From NCBI RefSeq assembly GCF_988242995.1, contig NZ_OZ547043.1: a DNA stretch of 64,000 bases, one strand, 5' to 3'. A program made the position numbers and the translations under genes. This document shows, piece after piece, positions 44,745 through 60,705 of the stretch. The notes under the pieces were generated by a model, which was not told the origin of the DNA, did not search any database, and saw only the letters and a list, made by a program, of their open reading frames with translations. How positions within the stretch are numbered: the first letter of the stretch is position 1; every line of letters starts with the position of its first letter.

Positions 44745-45683
44745 TCAAATCTGCTTTTCATACAATCGGTAACGCTTGTACGGCTCTGCCCCAATGCGTT
44801 CCAGCATGTTATTCATGCCTGTATTGGTTTCGAGGATCCATGACATTTCCAGCGCATCGATCTTCCGGCGGGCAAACGGATCGCGTAAGGCTTCAATCAA
44901 TAACAGCGCAATCACCGGGCCGATGCGGCTAAACTGATACTCGTCCCGCACGCCCATCAGCGGTACTCGCGCAGTTCGCACACCGCTGACTTTTAAACGC
45001 CACAGCAATTTTGCCCAGCCGAAGGGAAAGAGCGATCCGTTCAGATCGGCAATCGCCTCGTTGATGTTTGGCAAGCCAACAATAAACGCGCAGGGTGCAG
45101 AATCAATCTCAGCGATGTAGATCATATCGTCCGGCACCAGATATTTAAGTTGATCGCCCATAGTCGCGAATTCATGTTCGGTAAACGGCACAAATCCCCA
45201 GTTGTGCTGCCAGCCAGAGTTGAAAATCTCACGCAGGATCTGCATCTCTTCGGCAAACCGCTGGCGATTGATGCAGCGAATGGTCACCTTCTTACGCACC
45301 TGATCCATCAGTTTTTTTAGCGCCGGAGAGAAAGTGAGATCGGTTCGCTGCATCCACCACGCTAGTAAATCAATGCCTTTGTGATAACCCAATTGTTCAA
45401 TATGCGCGGCATACCACGGTTTACCGTGCGGCATCATCGCACAGGGTGGTGTATCGAAACCTTCAATCAGTAATCCGCTTTCCTGATTGATATTCAGGCT
45501 GAAAGGACCGCTGATCTTACTTGCACCTTGTGACTTCAACCACGCTTCCGCTGCGCCAAACAACGCGGCAAAAACCTGCGGATCATCAATGGCGTCAATC
45601 ATGCCGAAATGACCGGTATCTTCACCGTAACGCTCGCGGTGCAAGGTATCTATTTGCACGGTAATACGCCCAACTATCTGCCC
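44745..45683 (-). pseudogene. yghO: yghO, C-terminal 312 codons, separated from its N-terminus by IS4
   Basis: Frame stays open from 45683 down to the stop at 44745 and is in phase with the N-terminal fragment at 47123-47326 once IS4 plus one copy of the target duplication are removed. Confidence 0.75.
45671..45683. repeat. Left copy of the 13-bp IS4 target-site duplication CAACTATCTGCCC
   Basis: Identical 13-mer at 47110-47122 immediately flanking the other IS4 end. Confidence 0.85.
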
Positions 45684-47109
45684 TAATGCCGATCAGTTAA
45701 GGATCAGTTGACCGATCCAGTGGCTGTGTAAGAATCCGGAAACGCTCACTTGTTTCCGGATTTTTTTATGCACATTGGACAGGCTCTTGATCTGGTATCC
45801 CGTTACGATTCTCTGCGTAACCCACTGACTTCTCTGGGGGATTACCTCGACCCCGAACTCATCTCTCGTTGCCTTGCCGAATCAGGTACTGTAACGCTAC
45901 GCAAGCGCCGTCTTCCCCTCGAAATGATGGTCTGGTGTATTGTTGGCATGGCGCTTGAGCGTAAAGAACCTCTTCACCAGATTGTGAATCGCCTGGACAT
46001 CATGCTGCCGGGCAATCGCCCCTTCGTTGCCCCCAGTGCCGTTATTCAGGCCCGCCAGCGCCTGGGAAGTGAGGCTGTCCGCCGCGTGTTCACGAAAACA
46101 GCGCAGCTCTGGCATAACGCCACGCCGCATCCGCACTGGTGCGGCCTGACCCTGCTGGCCATCGATGGTGTGTTCTGGCGCACACCGGATACACCAGAGA
46201 ACGATGCAGCCTTCCCCCGCCAGACACATGCCGGGAACCCGGCGCTCTACCCGCAGGTCAAAATGGTCTGCCAGATGGAACTGACCAGCCATCTGCTGAC
46301 GGCTGCAGCCTTCGGCACGATGAAGAACAGCGAAAATGAGCTTGCTGAGCAACTTATAGAACAAACCGGCGATAACACTCTGACGTTAATGGATAAAGGT
46401 TATTACTCACTGGGACTGTTAAATGCCTGGAGCCTGGCGGGAGAACACCGCCACTGGATGATACCTCTCAGAAAGGGAGCGCAATATGAAGAGATCAGAA
46501 AACTGGGTAAAGGCGATCATCTGGTGAAGCTGAAAACCAGCCCGCAGGCACGAAAAAAGTGGCCGGGACTGGGAAATGAAGTGACTGCCCGCCTGCTGAC
46601 CGTGACGCGCAAAGGAAAAGTCTGCCATCTGCTGACGTCGATGACGGACGCCATGCGCTTCCCCGGAGGAGAAATGGGGGATCTGTACAGTCATCGCTGG
46701 GAAATCGAACTGGGATACAGGGAGATAAAACAGACGATGCAACGGAGCAGGCTGACGCTGAGAAGTAAAAAGCCGGAGCTTGTGGAGCAAGAGCTGTGGG
46801 GTGTCTTACTGGCTTATAATCTGGTGAGATATCAGATGATTAAAATGGCGGAACATCTGAAAGGTTACTGGCCGAATCAACTGAGTTTCTCAGAATCATG
46901 CGGAATGGTGATGAGAATGCTGATGACATTGCAGGGCGCTTCACCGGGACGTATACCGGAGCTGATGCGCGATCTTGCAAGTATGGGACAACTTGTGAAA
47001 TTACCGACAAGAAGGGAAAGGGCCTTCCCGAGAGTGGTAAAGGAGAGGCCCTGGAAATACCCCACAGCCCCGAAAAAGAGCCAGTCAGTTGCTTAACTGA
47101 CTGGCATTA
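45684..47109 (+). mobile_element. IS4, complete 1426-bp copy
   Basis: Terminal inverted repeats TAATGCCGATCAGTTAAG (45684-45701) and CTTAACTGACTGGCATTA (47092-47109); length exactly 1426 bp; flanked by 13-bp direct repeats. Confidence 0.85.
45768..47096 (+). CDS. insG: IS4 transposase (DDE family)
   Basis: 442 aa from [16 protein letters not shown]..., recalled as the IS4 transposase; the track ORF adds six residues upstream. Confidence 0.85.
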
Positions 47110-47326
47110 CAACTATCTGCCCCGCTTTTTTTGCCACCCACGCCTGCCAGATGATATGGTCCGTCCCCGGATTTTTCGCAGACAAATGCTCGTTGCGTTC
47201 AATGAATAAAGGGGGTATCCAGTTTGGATCGTCGGGATAAAGTGATGACGGAAAAGCGATAAATGCCTTAAGGTCATTTTTATTAATTACTTTTTCAATT
47301 TTAATCATCAGCAGATCGCATTCCAT
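47110..47326 (-). pseudogene. yghO: yghO N-terminal fragment (68 codons) plus right copy of the IS4 target duplication
   Basis: MECDLLMIKIEKVINKNDLKAFIAF... reads in frame into the duplicated 13-mer (47110-47122), then terminates inside IS4 in the track ORF. Confidence 0.75.
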
Positions 47327-47697: not shown

Positions 47698-49422
47698 ATG
47701 TCTAATAAAATCTTTACGCATTCCCTACCTATGCGCTATGCCGATTTTCCAACGCTGGTTGATGCTTTGGACTACGCCGCTCTGAGTAGCGCCGGAATGA
47801 ATTTTTATGACAGACGTTGCCAACTTGAAGATCAACTGGAATATCAGACGTTAAAAGCGCGTGCCGAAGCTGGTGCGAAGCGGTTGTTATCGCTGAACCT
47901 GAAAAAAGGCGATCGCGTGGCGCTGATTGCCGAAACCAGTAGCGGGTTCGTAGAGGCTTTTTTTTCCTGCCAGTATGCCGGCTTAGTCGCCGTCCCGTTG
48001 GCGATTCCAATGGGCGTCGGTCAGCGGGATTCCTGGAGCGCCAAACTGCAGGGTTTACTGGCAAGTTGCCAGCCCGCAGCCATTATCACTGGTGATGAGT
48101 GGTTACCGCTGGTCAATGCCGCGACGCATAACAACAACCCCGAATTACATGTTTTAAGCCACGCCTGGTTTAAGGCATTACCGGAAGCCGATGTTGCGCT
48201 CCAGCGTCCAGTTCCGAACGATATCGCCTACCTCCAGTACACCTCCGGCAGCACCCGTTTTCCCCGTGGCGTCATTATCACCCATCGCGAAGTGATGGCT
48301 AATCTACGTGCTATAAGCCACGATGGCATTAAATTACGCCCTGGCGACCGCTGCGTCTCCTGGCTGCCTTTCTACCATGATATGGGACTGGTCGGCTTTC
48401 TCCTGACCCCCGTCGCCACGCAGCTCTCAGTAGATTATTTGCGCACTCAGGATTTTGCCATGCGTCCTCTGCAATGGCTTAAATTGATCAGTAAAAATCG
48501 CGGCACCGTTTCCGTTGCGCCGCCGTTTGGCTATGAATTGTGCCAGCGCCGCGTGAATGAAAAAGATCTCGCTGAACTGGATCTTTCCTGCTGGCGCGTT
48601 GCTGGTATTGGTGCTGAGCCGATCTCCGCAGAACAACTCCATCAATTCGCTGAATGTTTCCGTCAGGTTAACTTTGACGATAAAACTTTCATGCCGTGCT
48701 ACGGACTGGCAGAAAATGCGCTGGCTGTCAGCTTCTCTGATGAAGCCTCCGGGGTTGTGGTTAACGAAGTGGATCGCGACATCCTTGAATATCAGGGCAA
48801 AGCCGTCGCGCCGGGTGCTGAAACACGCGCCGTATCGACTTTCGTCAACTGCGGTAAAGCGTTGCCGGAACATGGCATTGAAATCCGCAATGAAGCAGGT
48901 ATGCCGGTCGCGGAACGTGTGGTAGGCCATATTTGCATCTCCGGCCCTAGCCTGATGAGCGGTTACTTTGGCGACCAGATTTCACAAGACGAGATTGCCG
49001 CGACGGGCTGGTTAGACACCGGCGACCTCGGTTATCTGCTGGACGGTTATCTGTATGTCACCGGACGCATTAAAGATCTGATTATTATTCGTGGCCGTAA
49101 TATCTGGCCGCAGGATATTGAATATATTGCGGAACAGGAACCGGAAATTCATTCTGGCGATGCGATTGCTTTTGTTACCGCCCAGGAAAAAATCATTCTG
49201 CAGATCCAGTGTAGGATCAGCGACGAAGAACGTCGTGGGCAGCTTATCCACGCACTGGTAGCACGGATCCAAAGCGAATTTGGCGTAACAGCGGCTATCG
49301 ATCTGTTGCCGCCCCACAGTATTCCCCGAACGTCCTCCGGCAAGCCTGCCCGTGCGGAAGCGAAAAAACGTTATCAGAAGGCTTATGCTGCAAGCCTTCA
49401 TGTGCAGGAATCCCTGGCATGA
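47698..49422 (+). CDS. Fatty acyl-AMP ligase / acyl-ACP synthetase-like adenylating enzyme
   Basis: AMP-binding core motif YTSGSTRFPRGV; about 575 aa. Start uncertain (track uses TTG at 47671; first ATG is 47698). Confidence 0.7.
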   Translation: MSNKIFTHSLPMRYADFPTLVDALDYAALSSAGMNFYDRRCQLEDQLEYQTLKARAEAGAKRLLSLNLKKGDRVALIAETSSGFVEAFFSCQYAGLVAVPLAIPMGVGQRDSWSAKLQGLLASCQPAAIITGDEWLPLVNAATHNNNPELHVLSHAWFKALPEADVALQRPVPNDIAYLQYTSGSTRFPRGVIITHREVMANLRAISHDGIKLRPGDRCVSWLPFYHDMGLVGFLLTPVATQLSVDYLRTQDFAMRPLQWLKLISKNRGTVSVAPPFGYELCQRRVNEKDLAELDLSCWRVAGIGAEPISAEQLHQFAECFRQVNFDDKTFMPCYGLAENALAVSFSDEASGVVVNEVDRDILEYQGKAVAPGAETRAVSTFVNCGKALPEHGIEIRNEAGMPVAERVVGHICISGPSLMSGYFGDQISQDEIAATGWLDTGDLGYLLDGYLYVTGRIKDLIIIRGRNIWPQDIEYIAEQEPEIHSGDAIAFVTAQEKIILQIQCRISDEERRGQLIHALVARIQSEFGVTAAIDLLPPHSIPRTSSGKPARAEAKKRYQKAYAASLHVQESLA

Positions 49423-50333
49423 ATCAAACTGTCGCGGTGACGGGCGCTACCGGGTTTATCGGTAAATATATTATCGATAACCTGCTCGCCCGCGGCTTTC
49501 ACGTTCGCGCATTGACGCGTACTGCCCGCGCTCACGTCAATGACAATCTCATCTGGGTGCGCGGTTCTCTGGAAGATACTCATTCACTTAGCGAACTGGT
49601 TGCCGGAGCCAGCGCGGTGGTCCATTGCGCCGGACAAGTGCGCGGGCACAAAGAAGAGATTTTTACCCGCTGTAACGTTGACGGCAGCCTGCGACTGATG
49701 CAAGCGGCAAAAGAGAGCGGCTTTTGCCAACGTTTTCTGTTTATCTCTTCGCTGGCGGCGCGCCATCCCGAACTCTCCTGGTACGCAAATTCCAAACACG
49801 TCGCCGAACAACGGCTGACTGCAATGGCTGATGAAATTACGCTGGGCGTTTTTCGTCCGACAGCCGTGTATGGTCCCGGCGATAAAGAGTTAAAACCGCT
49901 GTTTGACTGGATGCTGCGCGGCCTGCTGCCACGACTTGGTGCGCCAGATACACAACTCTCTTTCCTGCACGTCACCGATTTTGCGCAAGCAGTGGGTCAG
50001 TGGTTAAACGCCGAAACTGTACAGACGCAAACCTATGAATTATGCGATGGCGTCGCTGGCGGCTATGACTGGCAACGCGTACGACAGCTTGCCGCCGAAG
50101 CCCGTTGTGGTTCTGTGCGGATGGTTGGCATTCCTCTGCCGCTACTCACCTGCCTTGCGGATATCAGTACTGCGTTGAGTCGCCTGGCAGGTAAAGAACC
50201 TATGCTGACCCGCTCGAAAATTCGTGAATTAACCCACGCCGACTGGTCGGCAAATAATAACCGTATTTCTGAAGATATTAATTGGTTTCCCGGGATTAGC
50301 CTGGAACACGCATTACGCAACGGGCTATTTTGA
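49419..50333 (+). CDS. NAD(P)-dependent reductase of the extended SDR (epimerase/dehydratase) family
   Basis: N-terminal Rossmann motif TGATGFIG and catalytic YANSK (YxxxK); ATGA overlap with the upstream ligase. Confidence 0.7.
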   Translation: MNQTVAVTGATGFIGKYIIDNLLARGFHVRALTRTARAHVNDNLIWVRGSLEDTHSLSELVAGASAVVHCAGQVRGHKEEIFTRCNVDGSLRLMQAAKESGFCQRFLFISSLAARHPELSWYANSKHVAEQRLTAMADEITLGVFRPTAVYGPGDKELKPLFDWMLRGLLPRLGAPDTQLSFLHVTDFAQAVGQWLNAETVQTQTYELCDGVAGGYDWQRVRQLAAEARCGSVRMVGIPLPLLTCLADISTALSRLAGKEPMLTRSKIRELTHADWSANNNRISEDINWFPGISLEHALRNGLF

Positions 50334-50364
50334 TTGTCTTGTTTAAAGGTGTGTTAACGTTTCT

Positions 50365-50613
50365 ATGGTAAATCGTGAAATAGTAATGGATTACATCCTT
50401 TCCTGTTTACAGGATTTGGTCGAAAACGGTGTGGAAATTAAGCCCGACAGCGATCTCGTCAACGATCTTGGCCTGGAGTCGATCAAAGTGATGGATCTCT
50501 TAATGATGCTGGAAGACAGATTCGATATTTCCATTCCTATTAATATTCTGCTGGATGTCAAAACCCCTGCGCAATTAATGGAAACACTACTTCCATGGCT
50601 GGAGAATAAATAA
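50365..50613 (+). CDS. Acyl carrier protein
   Basis: 82 aa four-helix-sized protein with phosphopantetheine-site-like DLGLESIKVMDL. Confidence 0.65.
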   Translation: MVNREIVMDYILSCLQDLVENGVEIKPDSDLVNDLGLESIKVMDLLMMLEDRFDISIPINILLDVKTPAQLMETLLPWLENK

Positions 50614-51785
50614 TGGGGCTATACGATAAATATGCGCGCCTTGCTGGCGAGCGACTGCAATTTAGTGACAACGGGTTAACACCGTTTGGCACCTGTATTG
50701 ATGAAGTGTATTCCGCCACCGAAGGTCGGATCGGCAATAAAAAAGTGATTCTGGCCGGGACCAATAATTATCTCGGTTTAACCTTTAATCATGATGCCAT
50801 CGCCGAAGGTCAGGCAGCATTAGCGGCCCAAGGCACCGGCACCACCGGTTCTCGTATGGCAAACGGCAGTTATGCGCCGCATCTGGCGTTAGAGAAAGAG
50901 ATCGCCGAGTTTTTTAATCGCCCTACCGCTATCGTTTTTTCAACCGGTTATACCGCTAATTTAGGCGTCATCAGCGCACTTGCCGACCATAACGCCGTGG
51001 TGTTACTGGATGCCGACAGCCACGCCAGTATTTATGACGCCTGTTCTCTCGGTGGCGCGGAAATTATTCGTTTCCGCCATAACGATGCTAAAGATCTGGA
51101 ACGGCGCATGGTTCGCCTCGGTGAACGGGCAAAAGAGGCGATTATCATCGTTGAAGGCATCTACAGTATGCTCGGTGACGTTGCGCCGCTGGCGGAAATT
51201 GTTGATATCAAACGTCGTCTCGGTGGTTATTTGATTGTCGATGAAGCGCATTCGTTTGGCGTGTTAGGCGCAACGGGGCGCGGACTGGCTGAAGCCGTTG
51301 GCGTTGAAGATGATGTGGATATTATCGTTGGTACTTTCAGTAAAAGTCTGGCCTCGATTGGCGGTTTTGCTGTCGGTTCGGAAGCGATGGAAGTGCTGCG
51401 CTACGGCAGCCGCCCGTATATTTTTACCGCCTCTCCTTCTCCGTCCTGCATTGCGACCGTGCGCTCGTCGTTAAGAACCATTGCTACACAACCAGAGTTG
51501 CGGCAAAAGCTGATGGATAATGCCAACCATCTGTATGACGGTCTGCAAAAACTGGGTTATGAGTTAAGTTCACATATTAGCCCGGTAGTGCCAGTAATAA
51601 TCGGTTCGAAAGAGGAAGGTTTACGCATCTGGCGCGAGCTTATTTCGCTGGGCGTTTATGTGAATCTTATCCTGCCACCTGCCGCGCCTGCAGGCATCAC
51701 GCTGCTGCGCTGTAGCGTAAACGCTGCCCACAGTCGTGAGCAAATCGATGCCATCATTCAGGCATTTGCTACTCTGAAGCAGTAA
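50613..51785 (+). CDS. PLP-dependent alpha-oxoamine synthase (serine palmitoyltransferase / 8-amino-7-oxononanoate synthase family)
   Basis: 390 aa with the family blocks FSTGYTANLG, HASIYDA, DEAHSFGVLG and the PLP-lysine motif GTFSKSLASIGGF; TAATG overlap with the ACP gene. Confidence 0.75.
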   Translation: MGLYDKYARLAGERLQFSDNGLTPFGTCIDEVYSATEGRIGNKKVILAGTNNYLGLTFNHDAIAEGQAALAAQGTGTTGSRMANGSYAPHLALEKEIAEFFNRPTAIVFSTGYTANLGVISALADHNAVVLLDADSHASIYDACSLGGAEIIRFRHNDAKDLERRMVRLGERAKEAIIIVEGIYSMLGDVAPLAEIVDIKRRLGGYLIVDEAHSFGVLGATGRGLAEAVGVEDDVDIIVGTFSKSLASIGGFAVGSEAMEVLRYGSRPYIFTASPSPSCIATVRSSLRTIATQPELRQKLMDNANHLYDGLQKLGYELSSHISPVVPVIIGSKEEGLRIWRELISLGVYVNLILPPAAPAGITLLRCSVNAAHSREQIDAIIQAFATLKQ

Positions 51786-51790
51786 TGTGA

Positions 51791-51819
51791 GCCCGCTGTG
51801 GTGCTGCGCCACGGCGGGT
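51791..51819. terminator. Hairpin between convergent stop codons, probable bidirectional terminator
   Basis: GCCCGCTGTGG...CCACGGCGGGT imperfect inverted repeat occupying the whole gap between the synthase stop (51783-51785) and the permease stop (51820-51822). Confidence 0.4.
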
Positions 51820-52899
51820 TTAATGTTGACTGTCATACCAATACACCAGGCTCAACGCCACCAGCACAAACACTATCGGTAAACCGAGCGCGGTAACAGG
51901 TGCGCTCAACGCAAATAACAATCCCAGATTGACCATGATTTGATAGCTGATCCAGGTGAGTAAGCCAACGATGACGCCTACAGCGAGACGGCTACCCATC
52001 CCTGGCGAGCGCGGGGCGCTAAAGGTAAACGGCACAGCCAGCAAAATCATCGCCAGAGTTAAGATGGGTTGCCCCAGTTTTTCCCACAGTGCAAGGCGGT
52101 AATCGCTGCTGGGTTGCCCGGTTTCCTGCAAATAATGGATGTAATGATTAAGCTGACGGACAGAAAAAGTATTCCCCGGCATCGATAACTCTTCAAGATC
52201 CATACTGGTGAAGGCCGATTGCCAGGCAAGATTATCTGATGTTTCCAGCGTTTCTTTGCCATTCAACCATTTTTTATGATTCACACCATGCAGGATCCAC
52301 GTTTTGTCGTCTTCAATGGAGGCACTGCGTGCAAAAATGTAGGATTCGAGCGAGAGATCGTCGCGATAATGAAATATCTCCACGCCCACAGGCTGGCCCT
52401 GCTCGTTCAGCGATTTCACCGTCACAAATTCATTACCGCGCCTGGCCCAAAGCATATTGCCGGTAATGTCATCGTCCTCCCCCAACGCGGTGGCAGTCGA
52501 TTTGATTTGCAGCGCCTGTTGCTGCAATGGCGACGCCACCCACTCATCTATCGCGCCTAACGAAACAGTCCACAATATCCCGGCAACCAGCGCCACCAGT
52601 GCAATACGGAAGATAGAAAACCCAGTGCTGCGAATGGCGGTAAGCTCACTGTTTTTCGATAACTGCCCCAGGCCAACAATCCCTCCCAATAATGCGATAA
52701 ACGGCGAAAGTTCGACCAGTGTACGCGGTAAGGTCATCAGCACCACCAGCACCGCCTGAGTCCAGCGATAACCACCCGGGCTGACATCATCCAGTTCGTT
52801 AATCAGGTTGAAGGTGGTAAAAAGCGGCAGCAATAGCCCTGCGGCGGCGGCAAAACCGAGAAAGAGATGACGGATTAAATAGCGACTGAAAACATTCAT
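51820..52899 (-). CDS. LptG/LptF-family (YjgP/YjgQ) permease, second of a pair
   Basis: Start set to MNVFSRYLIRHLF (ATGA overlap with the upstream paralogue); six-helix permease-like hydrophobicity with a large periplasmic loop. Confidence 0.65.
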   Translation of the reverse strand: MNVFSRYLIRHLFLGFAAAAGLLLPLFTTFNLINELDDVSPGGYRWTQAVLVVLMTLPRTLVELSPFIALLGGIVGLGQLSKNSELTAIRSTGFSIFRIALVALVAGILWTVSLGAIDEWVASPLQQQALQIKSTATALGEDDDITGNMLWARRGNEFVTVKSLNEQGQPVGVEIFHYRDDLSLESYIFARSASIEDDKTWILHGVNHKKWLNGKETLETSDNLAWQSAFTSMDLEELSMPGNTFSVRQLNHYIHYLQETGQPSSDYRLALWEKLGQPILTLAMILLAVPFTFSAPRSPGMGSRLAVGVIVGLLTWISYQIMVNLGLLFALSAPVTALGLPIVFVLVALSLVYWYDSQH

Positions 52900-53966
52900 C
52901 GGGAAAATTTCTGCAGCAATGAGAAGTCGCGTGCGACCAGCATCAGCAGGCCCATTAGCATGAGTCCGGGTACTAACCACAAACCAGGAATGAGGGGAAT
53001 CGCGCCGTTAGCCACCAGCGTACGGCAGACGTCGCCGCCATAAAAAATGGCAATAAACAGCAACGTCAGTGGCAATAATGTTGAAAATCGCCCTTGCCGC
53101 GGTTTTACCCGACTTAATGAAATGGCCAGCAGCGCCATCAACAATGCTGTCAGGCCACGGCTTTGTCGCCATTGCAGTTCGGCATGATCGGCTGGAAAGA
53201 CGGAGCGCGCCAGCTCCGTGACCGATTTTGCTTTGCGTTTGACGTTAGGGCTTTGATCCAGCGGATTCAGATGTAATTGCAGATTACGGTAGATCTGTTC
53301 GTTGTCGTCACGCCCCTGATGATCGAGAAGATAGGCGGTCCCGTTATGCAACATAACGGTCGGTTTCTCAGGTGATGGGTCAACCACATCAACCGAACGG
53401 GCGCGGAAAATGCGGGTTCGATTGGCAGTAGAAGTATAAATCAGCGCGTCAGTCAGGCGATTATTATCCTGATCAACCGTCTGCGAAAGGATCATTCGTC
53501 CGTTATCGTTAGTGTTAAATTTCTTTGCCCGCAACTGGCGAACATCCAGCTCCGACTGTGACTGTTGCTCCAGTTGATAAATCTGCGCATAAGCCCACGG
53601 ACGACCATACATCGACAGAAGGGTGACAAAAATACTTAGCGGTATCGCCAGATAAAGAACGGCTTTGTACAAGCGTCCCGGACTGCCCCCCGCCGCAGAA
53701 ATAGCGGTAATTTCCGAGTCGGTATACATCTGCCCTAGCGTCACGCCAACTGACACATACAGTCCAACAGGTAACAACATCTCCAGTGCAATCAGCACCT
53801 TGTAGAAAACAATATCCAGCACAACATCAAGAGCTAATGTCCCATTTGCCGCTTCGGTCAGATAACGCTGTGCGGAGTAGCTGGCGAAAATAAAGATCAG
53901 AAAACCGACGATAATCAGCACCAGACGGCGCGTACCACGCATGATGTAGTGTTCAACCAGCTTCAT
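52896..53966 (-). CDS. LptF/LptG-family (YjgP/YjgQ) permease, first of a pair
   Basis: 356 aa beginning MKLVEHYIMRGTRRLVLIIVGFLIF, same family architecture as the downstream paralogue. Confidence 0.65.
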   Translation of the reverse strand: MKLVEHYIMRGTRRLVLIIVGFLIFIFASYSAQRYLTEAANGTLALDVVLDIVFYKVLIALEMLLPVGLYVSVGVTLGQMYTDSEITAISAAGGSPGRLYKAVLYLAIPLSIFVTLLSMYGRPWAYAQIYQLEQQSQSELDVRQLRAKKFNTNDNGRMILSQTVDQDNNRLTDALIYTSTANRTRIFRARSVDVVDPSPEKPTVMLHNGTAYLLDHQGRDDNEQIYRNLQLHLNPLDQSPNVKRKAKSVTELARSVFPADHAELQWRQSRGLTALLMALLAISLSRVKPRQGRFSTLLPLTLLFIAIFYGGDVCRTLVANGAIPLIPGLWLVPGLMLMGLLMLVARDFSLLQKFSR

Positions 53967-53996
53967 CTCACTAACGCCCTCAATCCTTTGAATTTT

Positions 53997-54560
53997 TTAT
54001 TCATTGATCAGTTTCTGCGCCAGCGCAATGACATGTTCTACCTCTTCCGGCGTCAGGCTGCCGTCCTTTGCCCACTGAATTTGCCCGGCTTTATTCAGCA
54101 CCAGAATGGTTGAACTCTGCTCCGGCAACCGCCAGGCAACGCGTCCCTGTCCATTGCCGTCAATAACGAATTGCGCCCACGGATAGCGGCGTTTATTTTT
54201 TTCGATTTTGCCAACGACAAAATAGCCAGTACCAAAAATGGCATCATCGGTGTTCACAATGGTGGTGGGCTGAAAACGATCCTGCGGAAAGTTTGCCGCT
54301 TCAACCGCTTTAATTAACAGTGAGTTCTTTTTCTTCGCCGACTTACGCCCGGCGATATACTGAATAATGCGAACTTTTCCCGCCAGCTGTGTGCTGTTCC
54401 ACTTTTGGTAGTGAATTTCGTCGTCGCTATTCAGAAGCAGCTCGCCGCCTTCCTGGATATAAACAGGGGTAACCGTTTTGCCAGTGACGAAATTGTGTGC
54501 CTGCACACCCGGGGCTAAGAGCATGATAATCAGCGCAATAATCAAACGAGATGACATCAT
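53997..54560 (-). CDS. Secreted/periplasmic protein, YtfJ-like
   Basis: 187 aa with cleavable signal peptide (MMSSRLIIALIIMLLAPGVQA); family assignment is from recall only. Confidence 0.45.
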   Translation of the reverse strand: MMSSRLIIALIIMLLAPGVQAHNFVTGKTVTPVYIQEGGELLLNSDDEIHYQKWNSTQLAGKVRIIQYIAGRKSAKKKNSLLIKAVEAANFPQDRFQPTTIVNTDDAIFGTGYFVVGKIEKNKRRYPWAQFVIDGNGQGRVAWRLPEQSSTILVLNKAGQIQWAKDGSLTPEEVEHVIALAQKLINE

Positions 54561-54568
54561 TGCTCCGG

Positions 54569-55393
54569 TTATAGCGGAAAACGCGAAATCAGCAGCTCTA
54601 AGCGCTGGCGAATATCGCTATCCAGCGCCACCGGTGCATCATACGACTGGCGGTTTTCCATATCATCCGCCACCATGTCGTCGTGTTTATCCCCCATCAG
54701 GCCATTAATGGCGGCGAGGAAGCGGGAAATCTGTAACGCCTCTTTATTTTCAGGATCAAGCGATCTTAGGGTGTCGTAATAAGAAACCTGCTGGCTGATG
54801 ATTTTTCGCACATCATGAAATTCCCTGCCAGTTAGTCGCGGTTTGGCAATTATCTCTTTCAGGGTATGCATTTGCTTTTGCCGATAGGCAATAAAACCGC
54901 TTACGCTTTCTAACTGGCTATGGCGTAATGAATAGTTCACCAACGACCAGACCGGAGAGCTTAAATAAACCCGTAACAGGTTGCCGTAATACGACACAAT
55001 ATTTTTCTTACCGTTACGAAAGCCGTCCTGAAAACGCCCCAAAAAAACGGTCGTTTTGCCGAATAAAAATCCGGCCTGATGCTTTTTTAAATACAGCCGT
55101 TGCGCAAAACGCAGGTGCTTGTAGCGCGCTCGCATGTATTTAAATTGTTTGCGCTCATCAGCAGTCAGCTCATCGCCTTTGGCCTGTTTGCATATTAAAC
55201 GCAGTAACTCCTGGCGATTGACGCCATTGAGCCAGAATTGCAGGCATAACGCGTAATTATCATGGATGATTTCGGTGGTACAACTTAGTGCGATAGTCGG
55301 CGGCAAACTGACCTGTGCATCAACGACATCATCTTCTTCAATCGCAACAAATAGACGCTCGCTAGCCTCAAGCGGGAAATATTTTCTCATCAT
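54569..55393 (-). CDS. Conserved hypothetical protein, no recognised domain
   Basis: 274 aa basic soluble protein; 1-bp overlap with the upstream flippase gene. Confidence 0.45.
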   Translation of the reverse strand: MMRKYFPLEASERLFVAIEEDDVVDAQVSLPPTIALSCTTEIIHDNYALCLQFWLNGVNRQELLRLICKQAKGDELTADERKQFKYMRARYKHLRFAQRLYLKKHQAGFLFGKTTVFLGRFQDGFRNGKKNIVSYYGNLLRVYLSSPVWSLVNYSLRHSQLESVSGFIAYRQKQMHTLKEIIAKPRLTGREFHDVRKIISQQVSYYDTLRSLDPENKEALQISRFLAAINGLMGDKHDDMVADDMENRQSYDAPVALDSDIRQRLELLISRFPL

Positions 55394-56742
55394 CAGGATT
55401 TCTCTCCGGCTGCGTTATAAAGCAAGGAATGGCGCTGAAAAAATGCCTTTAAGGTTGGAATTAGCGAGAGCACCACATCCAGACATTGCCCAGCGAAGTA
55501 AGCAAATGCAGCCCCCAGCACGCCAAACAGATGACAGAACATGAACAGCAATACGATGTAGCCGATTGAGGCGATGGTTTGCGCCACGAGAAAAGCACGC
55601 TGTTTTCCCGCCATCAATAGCAATGACTCCTGTGGGAAGCCCAGCATCGAAATCACAATTGCGCCCAGCATCACCTGAATCAGGTCATACGCTTCGAGAT
55701 ACTTAACGCCAAACACCAGCGAAATGAGCGGCTTGCCGACGATCAACACCGCGAGCGCCACCAGAATACCGATTCCGCCCGCCAGTAAACCGGACTTCAC
55801 GCCTAACAACCACGGTCTGGTGGTGCGCGGATCTAAACGCATCACCTCTGGGTAAAAACTTTTACCCAGTAAACCCGCTGGCGTTCCGGCGGCGTCGAAG
55901 AATGTCATGGCGATTTTAAATAACCCGGCGGCAGCGGGTCCTAACACGATCCCCACCAACACTGTGCTGCACGAGTTACGTGCCGACCAGATGGAGTGGG
56001 CAATGTTGGTTGACCAGACAAAACTCCACGCGCCTTTAATGTGTCGGGCAGACTCAAACAGATTCAATTTGAAGGCGTTATGGATATTTCTGCGGCGTAA
56101 TTCGCGCGCGGCAAACCACCAGTACATGGTGCCGCCAACCAGATTCGACACGTACCAGGCAATAACAAAACCCGCAAAACCAAAGTCAAAATACCAGGCT
56201 ACGACGCTCCCCGCTGCGCGCAGAAAAGGTTTCGTCGCTTGCTGTACAGCAATTAGATCGAAGCGATCTACCGCACGCAGAATGCCGGTCGGCGTGGAGG
56301 AAGCCATTGAAGGAATGAGCGTGCAATACAGCGCGGCCAGCCAAAAGCTTTGGTCATCCAGACCTAATGAATGGGAAAGAAAAGGGAGTAAGGCAATGCC
56401 GCCGACAATCGCCACCGCGCCGCTGACGATATCCAGCGAGAAGGAAAATGAGACGACATTGCGGAATTGCTGCGGATTATTGTTGGTTAATGCTGGTGTT
56501 CCGTACTGCACCACCAACTGCCATGTCTGAAACTTAATAAAATCGCTGATCGACTTGGCGTACGATTGCACAATCACCAGTACGCCAAACATGGCGGGCG
56601 TCATCCCTTTACCGGCACACGAGAGCGCCAACAAACCCAGCAAGGCGCTCACGACATTACTGGAGCCTAACCAGGCGCTATTGCGAATAATGGTGCGAAA
56701 CGCGCCATCTGCAAACCAATGTTTGATGTTAAAACCCGCCAA
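55393..56742 (-). CDS. yghQ: Wzx-like (MOP superfamily) flippase
   Basis: 449 aa polytopic protein with N-terminal IIRNSAWLGSSNVVSALLGLLAL typical of polysaccharide-biosynthesis flippases; adjacent to yghR. Confidence 0.6.
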   Translation of the reverse strand: MAGFNIKHWFADGAFRTIIRNSAWLGSSNVVSALLGLLALSCAGKGMTPAMFGVLVIVQSYAKSISDFIKFQTWQLVVQYGTPALTNNNPQQFRNVVSFSFSLDIVSGAVAIVGGIALLPFLSHSLGLDDQSFWLAALYCTLIPSMASSTPTGILRAVDRFDLIAVQQATKPFLRAAGSVVAWYFDFGFAGFVIAWYVSNLVGGTMYWWFAARELRRRNIHNAFKLNLFESARHIKGAWSFVWSTNIAHSIWSARNSCSTVLVGIVLGPAAAGLFKIAMTFFDAAGTPAGLLGKSFYPEVMRLDPRTTRPWLLGVKSGLLAGGIGILVALAVLIVGKPLISLVFGVKYLEAYDLIQVMLGAIVISMLGFPQESLLLMAGKQRAFLVAQTIASIGYIVLLFMFCHLFGVLGAAFAYFAGQCLDVVLSLIPTLKAFFQRHSLLYNAAGEKS

Positions 56743-56787
56743 TTCAGCCTGACCTTATCGTTGATAGTAAAAAGTATCCCGCCAGCC

Positions 56788-57546
56788 TTAAGTTAAACTT
56801 CGGCGGTCAGAAACGATGGCAACCAGAGAAACCGCCTTCTGTGCCTGTTCCAGCACCTCGCTGTAAGGCGCTCTGGAATCAATCTCAAGAATTTTTGTGC
56901 CGTTATAGCCAATCGTCGACATGACGCCGATTTTGTCCTGCAGCTCGGCATAGTCATGGTCAGGCTTGCGGGAGATGGCAGTATCAATATCAATCCCCAA
57001 GCGAATGATTAATTCAGGACGGTATTGCGCCATTTGTTGGTATAAACGCCGTTCGCGCTGCGCCAGAAACATGCTGATTTTCCCGGTCGCACGTTCGACG
57101 CCGATCCCCGGTCCGTCATAATAAAAGCCCGAAATTTCAGCCTGCGGGAAGCGATCGCTGACCACCAGAACGCCACTTTGCGCCAGTCGCTGAACCTTGC
57201 GTAGATTCGCCATTCTTCGCAGCGAGAAGCAGTACATAATCACCGCCGCCCATAGCGCTGGAGATTTGGTTTTCATGCTTTGGGTTTTCGAGGATTTGGC
57301 CGCCAGTCGCCGTTCGAGCCAGACGCCAACCAACGGCAATCGTTTGATTTTGTCGCCGTCTTCGCCGGAGAGCAGCCCCAAATAGCGGCGCTCGGTTTGC
57401 CAGTGTTGTTGCAGCGATTTCACCAGGTCGGTGGTCAGCGTGGATTTACCGGTGCCATCACACCCGACCACCGCAATCAGCCCCGGAATGTAGTTGGGCT
57501 GCGGCACGGTTGTACTATTAACAGTTTGTGTTTGTAGTGCATCCAT
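56788..57546 (-). CDS. yghR: P-loop NTPase, thymidylate-kinase-like putative kinase
   Basis: 252 aa with N-terminal Walker A VVGCDGTGKSTL; paralogue of the next two genes. Confidence 0.7.
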   Translation of the reverse strand: MDALQTQTVNSTTVPQPNYIPGLIAVVGCDGTGKSTLTTDLVKSLQQHWQTERRYLGLLSGEDGDKIKRLPLVGVWLERRLAAKSSKTQSMKTKSPALWAAVIMYCFSLRRMANLRKVQRLAQSGVLVVSDRFPQAEISGFYYDGPGIGVERATGKISMFLAQRERRLYQQMAQYRPELIIRLGIDIDTAISRKPDHDYAELQDKIGVMSTIGYNGTKILEIDSRAPYSEVLEQAQKAVSLVAIVSDRRSLT

Positions 57547-57577
57547 TCGTTAAATCATCCCCTATCCATTTTGGTGA

Positions 57578-58291
57578 TCAGGAAAGCGCGGCGTGAATTG
57601 CGCGTAGTGACGCTTGCATAATTTCATCGGCTGGTTGCCGACCATCCAGTTCAAGGATCCTGGCGCCATTGAATGTCAGTTGCGGCGTAACGGCGATTTT
57701 TTCCTGTAACGCCGCCAGTTGATGGTCAGGTTTACGCGAAAACGCGGTTTGTTCATCAATGCCAAGACGAATCAACAATACGGGCAAATAAGACGCCATC
57801 CATTGGTACAGCTTCAGCTCGCGCTGCCTTAACATTTTTATCCAGCCGTTACCGCCCGTGGTTTTTGCCAATTGCGGGCCATCAAAGCGAAAACCCGGCA
57901 CTTCAACCTGCGGGTAGCGGTCGGTGATGAGCAGATAGCCTTGCTGGCTTTTACACAACATTTTGCGAAACTTGTACGCCCGCCAGCAGGAAAGCAGATA
58001 GATAACCAGCGCAGTAATATTGCCAGGCGGTGTTAAGGGCTTTTCGTGCACATGTGCCGCTTTACTTCGCAAATAACGCCCAAAAGGTGCGCCAATAACA
58101 GGGAGCTGTGAAATCCATTCGCCAATTCGCCCGGACGATTGCCCGAGATAAATGTGTTCTGTTGGCATTGTTGCTGCCAGTTCATTTACCAGGCTTGCCG
58201 TGAGGGTCGATTTACCTGAACCATCACATCCTACAATGGCAATAACACGCACTGGCGTGGAATTAATTATTGACATATTACGTTGATTCAC
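57578..58291 (-). CDS. yghS: P-loop NTPase, thymidylate-kinase-like putative kinase
   Basis: 237 aa, Walker A IVGCDGSGKSTL; collinear with yghR. Confidence 0.7.
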   Translation of the reverse strand: MNQRNMSIINSTPVRVIAIVGCDGSGKSTLTASLVNELAATMPTEHIYLGQSSGRIGEWISQLPVIGAPFGRYLRSKAAHVHEKPLTPPGNITALVIYLLSCWRAYKFRKMLCKSQQGYLLITDRYPQVEVPGFRFDGPQLAKTTGGNGWIKMLRQRELKLYQWMASYLPVLLIRLGIDEQTAFSRKPDHQLAALQEKIAVTPQLTFNGARILELDGRQPADEIMQASLRAIHAALS

Positions 58292-58464
58292 GAAAAACCC
58301 GGCAGCAAATAATGTATTGAATATTACGTGGTCCGTGCTCAGAATATCCGTTCAACCTTATTGTGACAATGGTTAATTGTGACATTGACCTGAATTACGC
58401 TTTCATAAAAACATATTAACCAAATAAATATTTTTAATGGATATTTAAATTAAAGGATATATTC

Positions 58465-59157
58465 ATGCAGTCAATAACACCTCCATTAATTGCCGTTATT
58501 GGTAGCGATGGTTCAGGCAAGTCAACGGTGTGTGAACATCTCATTACCGTTGTCGAAAAATATGGTGCTGCCGAAAGAGTTCATTTAGGAAAACAGGCCG
58601 GAAATGTCGGTCGTGCAGTGACAAAATTACCGTTGATGGGAAAATCCTTACATAAAACAATTGAACGAAATCAGGTGAAAACAGCAAAAAAATTGCCAGG
58701 ACCAGTTCCGGCGCTGGTAATTACAGCGTTTGTCGCCCGTCGCTTACTGCGCTTTCGTCATATGCTTGCCTGTCGTCGTCGCGGGTTAATTGTTCTAACC
58801 GACCGTTATCCTCAGGACCAAATTCCTGGCGCTTACGATGGTACAGTGTTCCCGCCTAACGTTGAAGGCGGCCGGTTTGTCTCATGGCTGGCAAGCCAGG
58901 AACGTAAAGCGTTTCACTGGATGGCGAGCCATAAACCTGATCTGGTCATCAAACTCAATGTCGATCTGGACGTGGCCTGCGCGCGTAAGCCTGACCACAA
59001 AAGAGAATCGCTGGAAAGGAAGATAGCCATAACGCCACAGTTAACCTTTGGAGGCGCGCAACTGGTTGATATCGATGCCAATCAACCGCTGGAACAAGTG
59101 CTGGTTGATGCGGAAAAAGCGATTACGGATTTTATGACCGCGCGTGGTTATCACTAG
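58465..59157 (+). CDS. yghT: P-loop NTPase, thymidylate-kinase-like putative kinase
   Basis: 230 aa, Walker [13 protein letters not shown]; divergent from yghS. Confidence 0.7.
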
Positions 59158-59205: not shown

Positions 59206-60705
59206 TTAAATCAACTGCAATGCTATCCAGTACAACCCACCAGAAAGAAAAATCGCCGCCGGTAAAGTAAACACCCACGCCATCAGGATGCTGGTTACCG
59301 TTTTACGCTGTAACCCACCGCCGTCCACCACCATCGTCCCTGCTACCGCAGACGAGAGGACGTGTGTTGTGGAGACGGGCATCCCAATATAACTGGCAAG
59401 GCCGATAGACACTGCCGCCGTCATTTGTGCCGCCATGCCTTGCGCATACGTCATGCCGCGCTTACCAATCTTCTCACCGATGGTCATCGCTACACGACGC
59501 CAGCCAATCATGGTGCCAATGCCGAGCGCCAGTGCTACTGCCATGATGATCCACACCGGAGCGTACTCAATGGTGCTTAACATATCGCTGCGCAGTTTTT
59601 TCAGCAGGTTCTGGTCTTCTTTACTGACGCCTGGCAGTTTCGCCAGCTTCGCGGAGGTATCAGAGATGCACAGCATAATGCGGCGCAGCTGGCTGCGCTG
59701 ACTCACGCTTAACGGCTCGTAACTTTCCATATTGCCTGGCAGCATCGTTTTAACGCGCGCAATCGCATCAAAGGTATTTGCCGGATGACAGTGAAACTCC
59801 GTTACTTGCGTACCATCAGTCGATGCCGCAGGCAATGGAGGTTCCATCGCAATCAACTTCTGCGGCAGTTCAGGATGCTGTTGCAGGTAGTGTTCGAAGT
59901 TGGTGACGGCATCGCGGGTACGGGTAATTTCATAGCCGGACGCATTCATATTGACGACGAAACCAGCAGGGGCAATCCCCACCAGTACCAGCATCACCAG
60001 GCCGATCCCTTTCTGCCCGTCGTTAGCACCGTGCGAAAACGCCACGCCCGCAGCGGAAACAATCAGCGCAATACGCGTCCAGAATGGTGGCTTCCGTTTG
60101 CCTTTTTTCTTTTTGCGATCTTCCGGAATGCGGTGAATACGGTCACGCTTTTTCGTCCCGCTCCAGTAGCGGCGCAGCAGGAATATCAGGCCTCCCGCAA
60201 TGACCAGGCCGACGATAGGGGAAACAATCAGCGAGGAGAAAATTTTGGTCACTTCACGCAGGTTTAACGCATCCATCACCGATGAGCCGGTTAACAGCGC
60301 GTTGGTTAAACCGATGCCGATAATCGCACCAATCAAGGTATGCGAACTGGAGGCCGGTAAACCAAAGAACCACGTTCCCAGGTTCCAGATAATCGCCGCC
60401 AGCAGCATGGAAAAGACCATCGCCAGGCCGTGAGTTGACCCCATATTCAGCAACAAATCGGTTGGCAACATATGGACAATGGCATAGGCAACGCTAAGTC
60501 CGCCTAGCAATACGCCAAAAAAGTTAAAAAATGCCGCCATCACCACAGCAAGTTGTGGTTGCATGGCACGAGTATAAATAACGGTTGCCACCGCATTCGC
60601 CGTATCATGAAAACCATTGATTGCTTCGTAGAACAACACAAATGCCAGAGCAAGTAATAACAAAAGCCCCGTGAATATATCAAGGCCAACAAATAAATTT
60701 AGCAT
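59206..60705 (-). CDS. pitB: Low-affinity inorganic phosphate transporter (PiT family)
   Basis: 499 aa polytopic transporter with the PiT signature region [15 protein letters not shown] near the N-terminus. Confidence 0.85.

Follow-up and report, generated by a model that had tools for sequence, protein, structure and literature searches.

A second LptF/LptG permease pair and a kinase/CHAD-like/flippase module beside the serine palmitoyltransferase genes of Escherichia coli: a probable sphingolipid modification and export locus

Gene content and organization of the locus

Here we describe a seven-gene operon on the minus strand (positions 51820-58291) of a 64,000-nucleotide stretch of contig NZ_OZ547043.1 (RefSeq assembly GCF_988242995.1), hereafter the window, which corresponds at this point to the yghO-yghT region of Escherichia coli and Shigella, the chromosome segment between glcC/yghO and pitB/gss. 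The operon encodes paralogs of the lipopolysaccharide (LPS) permeases LptF and LptG, a YtfJ-family periplasmic protein, a CHAD-like protein designated Ybl138, the candidate flippase YghQ and two P-loop kinase-like proteins, and it converges on a biosynthetic operon that includes the serine palmitoyltransferase gene spt. We consider it probable that this operon is the post-ceramide half of an Enterobacterales sphingolipid locus, responsible for phosphorylation and flipping of the lipid and for its delivery to the outer membrane by LptF2/LptG2. The features of the locus are as follows.

51820-52899, minus strand: lptG2, LptG-family permease paralog (359 aa; TIGR04408 profile)
52896-53966, minus strand: lptF2, LptF-family permease paralog (356 aa; TIGR04407 profile)
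53997-54560, minus strand: YtfJ-family periplasmic protein gene (TIGR01626; signal peptide, mature part without cysteine)
54569-55393, minus strand: gene for the soluble, all-alpha Ybl138, which has a CHAD-like (polyphosphate-binding) fold (274 aa)
55393-56742, minus strand: yghQ, membrane protein of the MOP/Wzx superfamily, candidate flippase (449 aa)
56788-57546, minus strand: yghR, thymidylate-kinase-like P-loop kinase paralog (252 aa)
57578-58291, minus strand: yghS, thymidylate-kinase-like P-loop kinase paralog, first gene of the operon (237 aa)
58465-59157, plus strand: yghT, third kinase paralog, divergent (34-36% identity to YghR/YghS)
47701-51785, plus strand: aasR-cerR-acpR-spt, the partner biosynthetic operon (open reading frames and RefSeq names)
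44748-47326, minus strand: yghO, bacterial ceramide synthase homolog, split by IS4 (tblastn)
51793-51819: inverted repeat, a terminator-like hairpin between the convergent spt and lptG2 stops (sequence and folding)

All seven minus-strand open reading frames (ORFs) are full length, and their lengths agree with the RefSeq annotation of the equivalent E. coli locus, where the order is yghO, fatty acyl-AMP ligase, NAD-dependent epimerase, acyl carrier protein, spt, lptG, lptF, YtfJ family protein, a hypothetical protein, a 'lipopolysaccharide biosynthesis protein', a hypothetical protein (yghR), yghS and yghT. The tight packing of these genes, noted in a preliminary description of this DNA, is borne out by the ORFs and by direct reading of the sequence: the lptF2 stop and the lptG2 start overlap as ATGA (52896-52899), the Ybl138 start and the yghQ stop share a single A (TGA/ATG) at 55393, and the remaining intergenic gaps are 30, 8, 45 and 31 bp. 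The true start of lptG2 is the ATG at 52899, the GTG at 52980 being an extension made by the ORF finder only. The tail-to-tail ending across a hairpin, likewise described before, was found as well: the 34 bp that separate the TAA of spt (51783-51785) from that of lptG2 (51820-51822) are filled by an inverted repeat with the arms cccgctgtgg-N7-ccacggcggg and a folding energy of -28.3 kcal/mol (z -6.3) on the plus strand and -15.7 kcal/mol (z -2.7) on the minus strand. A scan for consensus promoters and terminators returned sites no more numerous than in shuffled sequence, which leaves the question of a single operon unaffected either way.

The protein families named in the preliminary description also stood up to profile searches. 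Its two paralogous YjgP/YjgQ-type permeases exceed the curated LptF and LptG cut-offs, its signal-peptide protein is a YtfJ-family member with a single N-terminal hydrophobic segment, and its MOP-type flippase is recovered through a weak Polysacc_synt/MOP match (E 1e-8). The reported absence of an ABC ATPase gene was confirmed, as no ABC signature occurs in the operon and no ORF of the 64-kb window combines Walker A with LSGGQ. The P-loop genes with an N-terminal Walker A were correctly recognized for YghR and YghS, which carry GCDG(T/S)GKS close to the N-terminus, but this set was incomplete, the third paralog yghT lying outside the interval described.

Distribution and modular composition of the locus

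The conservation of the locus was assessed in 5426 complete E. coli genomes. The segment 51000-59000, which reaches from the 3' end of spt across the transport block into yghT, was matched in 4749 of them and had no match in the other 677, and 4095 contain 80% or more of it in one piece; the whole cluster is present in about 75% of complete E. coli genomes. The spt operon and the block from lptG2 to Ybl138 occur in 4186 and 4174 genomes, respectively. In K-12-type strains both blocks were lost by one deletion (yghO' to yghQ'), and the 3' part of yghQ remains together with yghRST.

For the survey across species, one genome per species was scanned with an alignment of serine palmitoyltransferases (SPT), which gave 80 loci; these were searched by tblastn with all 13 proteins of the locus within 10 kb around spt, and fractions were counted on fully flanked loci, comprising 28 from Enterobacterales and 15 from a Pseudomonas/Azotobacter/Stutzerimonas group that includes one betaproteobacterial metagenome-assembled genome (MAG). 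Among the Enterobacterales, LptF2/LptG2 are encoded within 10 kb of spt in 26 of the 28 loci and all 13 genes are present in 25. Loci of this order span Escherichia, Pseudocitrobacter, Hafnia, Sodalis, Serratia, Pantoea, Shimwellia, Erwinia, Mangrovibacter, Pluralibacter, Rahnella, Citrobacter, Klebsiella indica, Cedecea and Tatumella; the set stays together even where its gene order and orientation are rearranged, as in Serratia, Sodalis and Hafnia. The Pseudomonas/Azotobacter/Stutzerimonas group has LptF2/LptG2 within the same distance of spt in 14 of 15 loci, and genes for the YtfJ-family protein, the CHAD-like protein and YghQ in none. The order and orientation of the genes vary among the loci of both groups. 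No LptF2/LptG2 were seen in four loci from Gallionellaceae, Sulfuritalea, Rhodocyclaceae and a proteobacterial MAG (L071, L073, L075 and L082), all of which contain YghQ-like genes and YghR/S-like kinases (49-58% identity); YghT-like copies in this set are 39-55% identical, and the CHAD-like protein was found in L075 and L082. The preliminary description had proposed co-occurrence of the two gene blocks as a test on which its interpretation should fall or stand, and the blocks do co-occur, both within E. coli and across species. The locus is composed of separable modules: a ceramide core, LptF2/LptG2, and a kinase/CHAD/flippase module.

The third of these modules was traced beyond Enterobacterales. 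A YghS-YghR-YghT-YghQ-CHAD block is found in Sphingobium cloacae (46-55% identity), where the flippase and CHAD genes overlap as they do in E. coli, and members of the five-gene module occur as dispersed copies in Acetobacter. Rhodocyclaceae, Sulfuritalea, Gallionellaceae and the sphingomonad-like metagenomic contig L006 have module genes adjacent to spt; on L006 the CHAD-like gene is closest to sphingomonad proteins, and YghS and YghR are fused into one protein.

Individual loci showed further peculiarities. Serratia sp. M24T3 has two spt copies (L016, L041), one in a full 13-gene locus and the other with acpR alone alongside. A contig labeled Martelella alba, an alphaproteobacterium (L035), bears an Enterobacterales-type locus with an SPT identity of 79%, which suggests a mislabeled or contaminated assembly or a recent transfer. 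In Hafnia alvei (L004; 6157-6844, 19427-20152) the yghT match runs over two frames, which may reflect a frameshift, and a 4'-phosphopantetheinyl transferase gene adjoins yghO. In Serratia marcescens (L002; 13856-16919) a phospholipase-like gene (DUF8093) and two ankyrin-repeat genes come after the operon. In E. coli yghT has as its neighbor pitB, a phosphate transporter gene of the PHO4 family (window 59206-60705), and the same holds for Hafnia (L004; 4508-6007).

The LptF2/LptG2 permease pair

Both permeases align end to end with the NCBIfam models of their families, LptG2 scoring 307 bits against TIGR04408 (cut-off 240) and LptF2 318 bits against TIGR04407 (cut-off 230), and together they matched all solved LptF and LptG chains in the PDB (about 1e-40 for LptG2 with LptG chains). 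The identity to the K-12 proteins is 28% for LptG2 with LptG and 30% for LptF2 with LptF. Residue E85 of both paralogs aligns with E84 of LptF and E88 of LptG, which we take to be the coupling-helix glutamates that dock on LptB; this glutamate is kept in 52 of 52 LptF2 and 49 of 50 LptG2 orthologs.

The substrate cavity differs from that of the LPS permeases. Residues by which LptF and LptG contact LPS are listed in a cryo-electron microscopy study of the Shigella flexneri complex, and those lining the cavity for the lipid A phosphates and inner core are K34, K40, K41, K62, R133 and R136 of LptG and R33 and K317 of LptF, the substitution K34E in LptG being lethal (PMC6744409). In LptG2 of the window, the positions of LptG K34, K40, K41 and R133 are occupied by N, D, D and L, and in all 50 of 50 LptG2 orthologs K34 is replaced by N, D or T, K40 by D or E, K41 by D and R133 by a hydrophobic residue; moreover, I66 is acidic and D37 is changed in every LptG2 ortholog. 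The orthologs retain the basic residues corresponding to LptF R33, LptG K62 and LptG R136, that is, part of the 1-phosphate site. This pattern speaks against a redundant LPS exporter and would fit a smaller lipid with a single anionic group. Judged by their sequences, LptF2 and LptG2 are members of the LptF/LptG family, not LPS-specific equivalogs. The pair resembles the resident LptB2FGC system of E. coli in family membership, in its adjacent and overlapping genes and in the coupling glutamates; it differs, besides the low identity and the altered cavity, in having no lptB or lptC adjacent and in being non-essential, as it is absent from K-12.

The closest precedent is the sphingolipid locus CC_1152-CC_1168 of Caulobacter crescentus, which encodes LptC2, LptF2 (CCNA_01214), LptG2 (CCNA_01213) and a Polysacc_synt-type putative flippase, CC_1166; in 2024, LptC2/F2/G2 and the flippase were proposed to export phosphosphingolipids (PMC11324152). 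More recently, lptF2, lptG2 and lptC2 of Caulobacter were found to be deletable only in the absence of spt or cpgB, and its LptF2 and LptG2 to co-purify with one another as well as with its only LptB; the same study reports lptF2/lptG2 in many alpha- and gammaproteobacterial sphingolipid loci and depicts the locus of E. coli UTI89 in its Figure 2B (bioRxiv 10.64898/2026.04.12.717747). The co-purification with LptB answers, for Caulobacter, the question of an energy source that was raised in the preliminary description, and the conserved coupling glutamate is consistent with the same arrangement here. Likewise, the earlier suggestion that a second permease pair extracts or delivers the lipid made by the neighboring operon is supported by the co-occurrence with spt together with the genetics and pull-downs in Caulobacter. 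Both the export idea and the answer about energy are already in the literature, for Caulobacter rather than E. coli.

The two loci share a second LptF/LptG pair without a second lptB, a Polysacc_synt-type putative flippase, and the same five ceramide genes (aasR, cerR, acpR, spt and bcerS/yghO). The E. coli locus, unlike that of Caulobacter, has neither LptC2 nor the genes for the CPG head group (the diacylglycerol (DAG)-kinase-type ceramide kinase CpgB, a Tam41-like protein, a CDP-alcohol transferase and nucleotidyltransferases), and it has instead three thymidylate-kinase-like proteins, a CHAD-fold protein and a YtfJ-family periplasmic protein. The Caulobacter model, in which LptB2F2G2 extracts an anionic sphingolipid, is the one proposed for the E. 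coli locus as well. The LptF2/LptG2 copies of Azotobacter vinelandii and Pseudomonas luteola show 47-54% identity to the E. coli proteins; the 2024 study credits these two species with good orthologs of at least 13 of the 17 Caulobacter genes, and CC_1155 and CC_1156 are outside the four that it lists as missing (PMC11324152).

The candidate flippase YghQ and its counterpart in other lineages

YghQ has at least eight hydrophobic segments and weak matches to Pfam Polysacc_synt (PF01943, E 1.1e-8) and PF13440 (E 1.2e-7), and it scores 35 bits against the NCBIfam MOP flippase model with its cut-off of 273. On these profile matches, YghQ is a member of the MOP superfamily that falls under no specific Wzx equivalog. 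An MsbA/HepA-like half ABC exporter is encoded directly 3' of spt in Pseudomonas, Azotobacter, Stutzerimonas and Halomonas-type loci. Among the 80 spt loci, a YghQ-like gene is present in 38, the MsbA-like exporter in 27, and both in none, a mutual exclusion that looks as though, at this step, one type of flippase had displaced the other. The loci with the MsbA-like exporter are all non-enterobacterial (L043-L063, L065, L067, L068, L072, L077, L079, L080 and L086; at about 11.2-13.1 kb in most).

The YghR, YghS and YghT kinases

The three kinase-like proteins are soluble and share 34-42% mutual identity (42% between YghR and YghS). YghR displays the Walker A motif GCDGTGKS together with DRYP and RKPDH, and YghS shows a thymidylate kinase fold with the P-loop aspartate, the DRY motif and a basic lid; the family profile matched thymidylate kinases in the PDB at 7e-10. 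In thymidylate kinase (Tmk), the P-loop aspartate, DRY and lid elements move a phosphate onto a phosphomonoester. The proteins share with the Tmk superfamily the G-x-D-G-x-G-K-S-T P-loop, the DRY motif and the basic lid, and they are set apart by a helical insert of about 60 residues, by the presence of three paralogs that are sometimes fused, by gene neighborhoods of lipid or polysaccharide rather than nucleotide metabolism, and by their scores against the dTMP kinase model TIGR00041, which at 25-31 bits (31 for YghR, about 25 for YghS and YghT) lie under the cut-off of 83. The RefSeq name 'dTMP kinase' for YghS and YghT (window 57578-59157) is therefore an over-call. None of the three proteins carries an LSGGQ/ABC signature motif.

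The paralogs tend to travel together, yghT being kept alongside yghR and yghS in Serratia, Sodalis, Hafnia, Sphingobium and Rhodocyclaceae, and fusion proteins of the types YghS-YghR and YghT-YghR/S were observed. Many proteins of about 500 aa (P0176, P0180, P0186, P0212 and many more) also have the YghS-like domain as their C-terminal half; their N-terminal domain of about 260 aa, with a GExDxDLLV motif, had no match in Pfam or NCBIfam. In six Pseudomonas species (L044, L046, L048-L051; for example L048 13071-16507), spt is followed in a row by the MsbA-like exporter gene, genes for two YghRST-like kinases and one for a CptA-like phosphoethanolamine transferase. CptA-family enzymes decorate phosphate groups. 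The linkage of YghR/S/T to spt in three proteobacterial classes, together with the phosphoethanolamine transferase in Pseudomonas, fits a role in head-group modification, and we infer that the three proteins act as head-group kinases; one may speculate that YghS-type kinases extend a head group that is already phosphorylated.

The step proposed for them, phosphorylation of the head group of ceramide ahead of its export, is that of Caulobacter CpgB. We considered YghR/S/T as CpgB homologs and ruled this out, CpgB having an LCB5/DAG-kinase fold with a GGDG motif and YghR/S/T being P-loop kinases (PMC10331486). A literature search on yghQ, yghR, yghS and yghT found incidental mentions only. A gene for an LpxO-like Asp/Arg beta-hydroxylase stands beside the kinase genes in five loci (L006 at 7418-8188, L024, L028, L073 and L082) and may act by hydroxylating an acyl chain of the lipid.

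The YtfJ-family protein and the CHAD-like protein Ybl138

The YtfJ-family protein scores 212 bits against TIGR01626 (NCBIfam; cut-off 151), has one N-terminal hydrophobic segment, and PF09695 is recorded on its orthologs. Its gene is present in 26 of the 28 fully flanked Enterobacterales loci and in none of the other loci. Sequence and profile searches of the PDB found no relative; the family presumably belongs to the thioredoxin-like clan of Pfam.

Ybl138 has the two-bundle helical fold of CHAD domains, with conserved Arg, Lys and His residues as in polyphosphate-binding CHAD modules such as Ricinus CHAD 6qv5, Chlorobium 3e0s, PptA 6rn5 and E. coli YgiF. Relatives of Ybl138 in AFDB/UniProt carry the name CHAD domain-containing protein, and PF05235 is present in two distant members of the family. 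In contrast to known CHAD domains, Ybl138 lacks a Pfam CHAD match and a CYTH partner, and it is translationally coupled to a MOP flippase gene. No paper pairing 'CHAD domain' with sphingolipid was found in the literature searched.

The biosynthetic partner genes

The convergent aasR-cerR-acpR-spt operon encodes an acyl-ACP synthetase, a reductase, a dedicated acyl carrier protein (ACP) and serine palmitoyltransferase. The orthologs of E. coli BL21 (ECD_02851-02854) have been studied, AasR, AcpR and Spt yielding 3-oxo-sphinganine when expressed, and yghO was equated with aca/bCerS and taken as the N-acyltransferase (PMC9386255). In the window, an IS4-like element (about 45684-47110) interrupts yghO and has duplicated its target over about 12 bp: tblastn assigned 47326-47111 to YghO residues 1-72 and 45683-44748 to residues 69-380. 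This IS4/yghO junction is absent from all 5426 complete E. coli genomes, and all genes of the locus other than yghO are intact in the window. With yghO interrupted, ceramide synthesis is probably blocked in this strain, which would leave the downstream operon without its substrate.

Proposed pathway and alternative explanations

In the pathway that we regard as probable, AasR, AcpR, Spt, YghO and CerR would produce (dihydro)ceramide at the cytoplasmic side of the inner membrane, a sequence of reactions for which the E. coli evidence extends to 3-oxo-sphinganine. YghR, YghS and YghT, with Ybl138, would then place one or more phosphates onto the ceramide head group, and YghQ would flip the lipid to the periplasmic leaflet, as its apparent displacement by an MsbA-like exporter in other lineages suggests. 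By analogy with Caulobacter, a LptF2/LptG2 heterodimer docked on LptB through the coupling-helix glutamates would extract the lipid and push it onto the Lpt bridge toward the outer membrane, and the YtfJ-family periplasmic protein would be an Enterobacterales-specific accessory.

A wider proposal can be put forward tentatively, as a possibility that we hold to be well short of even: YghR/S/T, Ybl138 and YghQ may constitute a previously unrecognized sphingolipid head-group pathway, an alternative to the CPG route of Caulobacter that is widespread in Enterobacterales, sphingomonads, Acetobacteraceae and some Betaproteobacteria. Its product might be a ceramide bearing phosphate, possibly as pyro- or oligophosphate, and most E. 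coli could then put an unnoticed anionic sphingolipid in the outer membrane via LptB2F2G2.

Several observations weigh against the sphingolipid interpretation. Sequence-level tests of the CHAD assignment of Ybl138 were negative: Pfam CHAD (PF05235) matched neither the E. coli protein nor 19 aligned relatives, hhalign against E. coli YgiF gave a probability of 0.3%, and a profile search (hmmsearch) of the PDB with the Ybl138 alignment returned nothing, so that the assignment is a structural one, made on the fold and on the names of distant relatives. The tie of E. coli LptF2/LptG2 to CCNA_01213/CCNA_01214 would be an indirect link. To these are added the observations behind the two alternatives considered next.

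The kinase/CHAD/flippase module might act on a glycan or a polyprenol-linked intermediate, in the decoration of a surface polysaccharide or glycolipid, and be only loosely coupled to the sphingolipid genes. RefSeq names YghQ a 'lipopolysaccharide biosynthesis protein', and the protein matches Polysacc_synt. Fusions join YghS-like domains to a GT4 glycosyltransferase (P0227) and a Wzc-like chain-length/tyrosine-kinase protein (P0257), and in some taxa the module has rhamnose or glycosyltransferase genes as neighbors and no spt occurs within 10 kb, as in locus L007, where it stands next to rmlBADC; GT4 and GT2 genes neighbor it in Sphingobium and Acetobacter. However, the Enterobacterales locus contains no glycosyltransferase, initiating phosphoglycosyl transferase or polymerase, and the module lies within 10 kb of spt in 26-27 of the 28 Enterobacterales loci and in several Betaproteobacteria. 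Sphingomonads, moreover, scatter their sphingolipid genes and make glycosphingolipids, and glycosyltransferase neighbors in that group are compatible with a sphingolipid substrate (PMC11324152). We regard a glycan substrate as rather unlikely.

The locus might also be a cryptic or decaying island, acquired horizontally by E. coli, that makes no lipid under natural conditions and whose arrangement reflects ancestry. It is dispensable, having been deleted from yghO' to yghQ' in the K-12 lineage and struck by IS4 in the yghO of the window, and 677 of the 5426 genomes have no match to 51000-59000. A literature search found no report of a native sphingolipid in wild-type E. coli, and the activity of the E. 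coli genes has been shown on over-expression only and to 3-oxo-sphinganine only (PMC9386255). Against decay, full-length copies of the seven ORFs are found here and, with 95-99% identity, in about 4100 genomes, intact orthologs occur in at least 15 Enterobacterales genera at 55-85% protein identity, and the AasR, AcpR and Spt proteins of BL21 are active (PMC9386255). A cryptic island is, in our estimate, improbable.

A spare or condition-specific exporter of LPS (for example, with modified lipid A) that stands beside spt by chance would account for the annotation of both permeases as LptF and LptG, for their scores over the equivalog cut-offs and for the conserved coupling helices and overall architecture. 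It would have to be reconciled with acidic, neutral or hydrophobic residues at LptG K34, K40, K41 and R133 in all 50 orthologs, at the first of which a charge reversal is lethal in LptG (PMC6744409), with an identity of just 28-30% to the resident LptFG, with linkage to spt across Enterobacterales and the Pseudomonas/Azotobacter group, and with a Caulobacter deletion phenotype that depends on sphingolipid synthesis (bioRxiv 10.64898/2026.04.12.717747), and we hold it to be very improbable. That YghR/S/T are the missing ATPases powering LptF2/LptG2 is hardly credible: they are P-loop proteins of LptB size (about 240 aa) in a locus with no ABC ATPase gene nearby, but they lack LSGGQ, match thymidylate kinase and not ABC proteins in fold and profile, occur in loci without LptF2/LptG2 (Betaproteobacteria, Sphingobium) and are missing from most LptF2/LptG2-bearing Pseudomonas/Azotobacter loci, and in Caulobacter it is LptB that binds LptF2/LptG2 (bioRxiv 10.64898/2026.04.12.717747).

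Implications for outer membrane biogenesis

What is new here is the composition of the Enterobacterales locus and the conserved five-gene kinase/CHAD/flippase module. Outer membrane biogenesis has its reference organism in E. coli, and yet about three quarters of the sequenced strains of this species hold, complete and intact, a locus for a lipid class that K-12 has deleted. The accessory set, in which three thymidylate-kinase-like proteins are joined by a CHAD-fold and a YtfJ-family protein, provides a manageable starting point in an organism whose genetics are simple. Should the locus be active, one LptB would serve two extractors of different substrates, and this would bear on the action of Lpt-targeting antibiotics and polymyxins in clinical strains, as well as on envelope stress and on the way hosts recognize bacterial sphingolipids.

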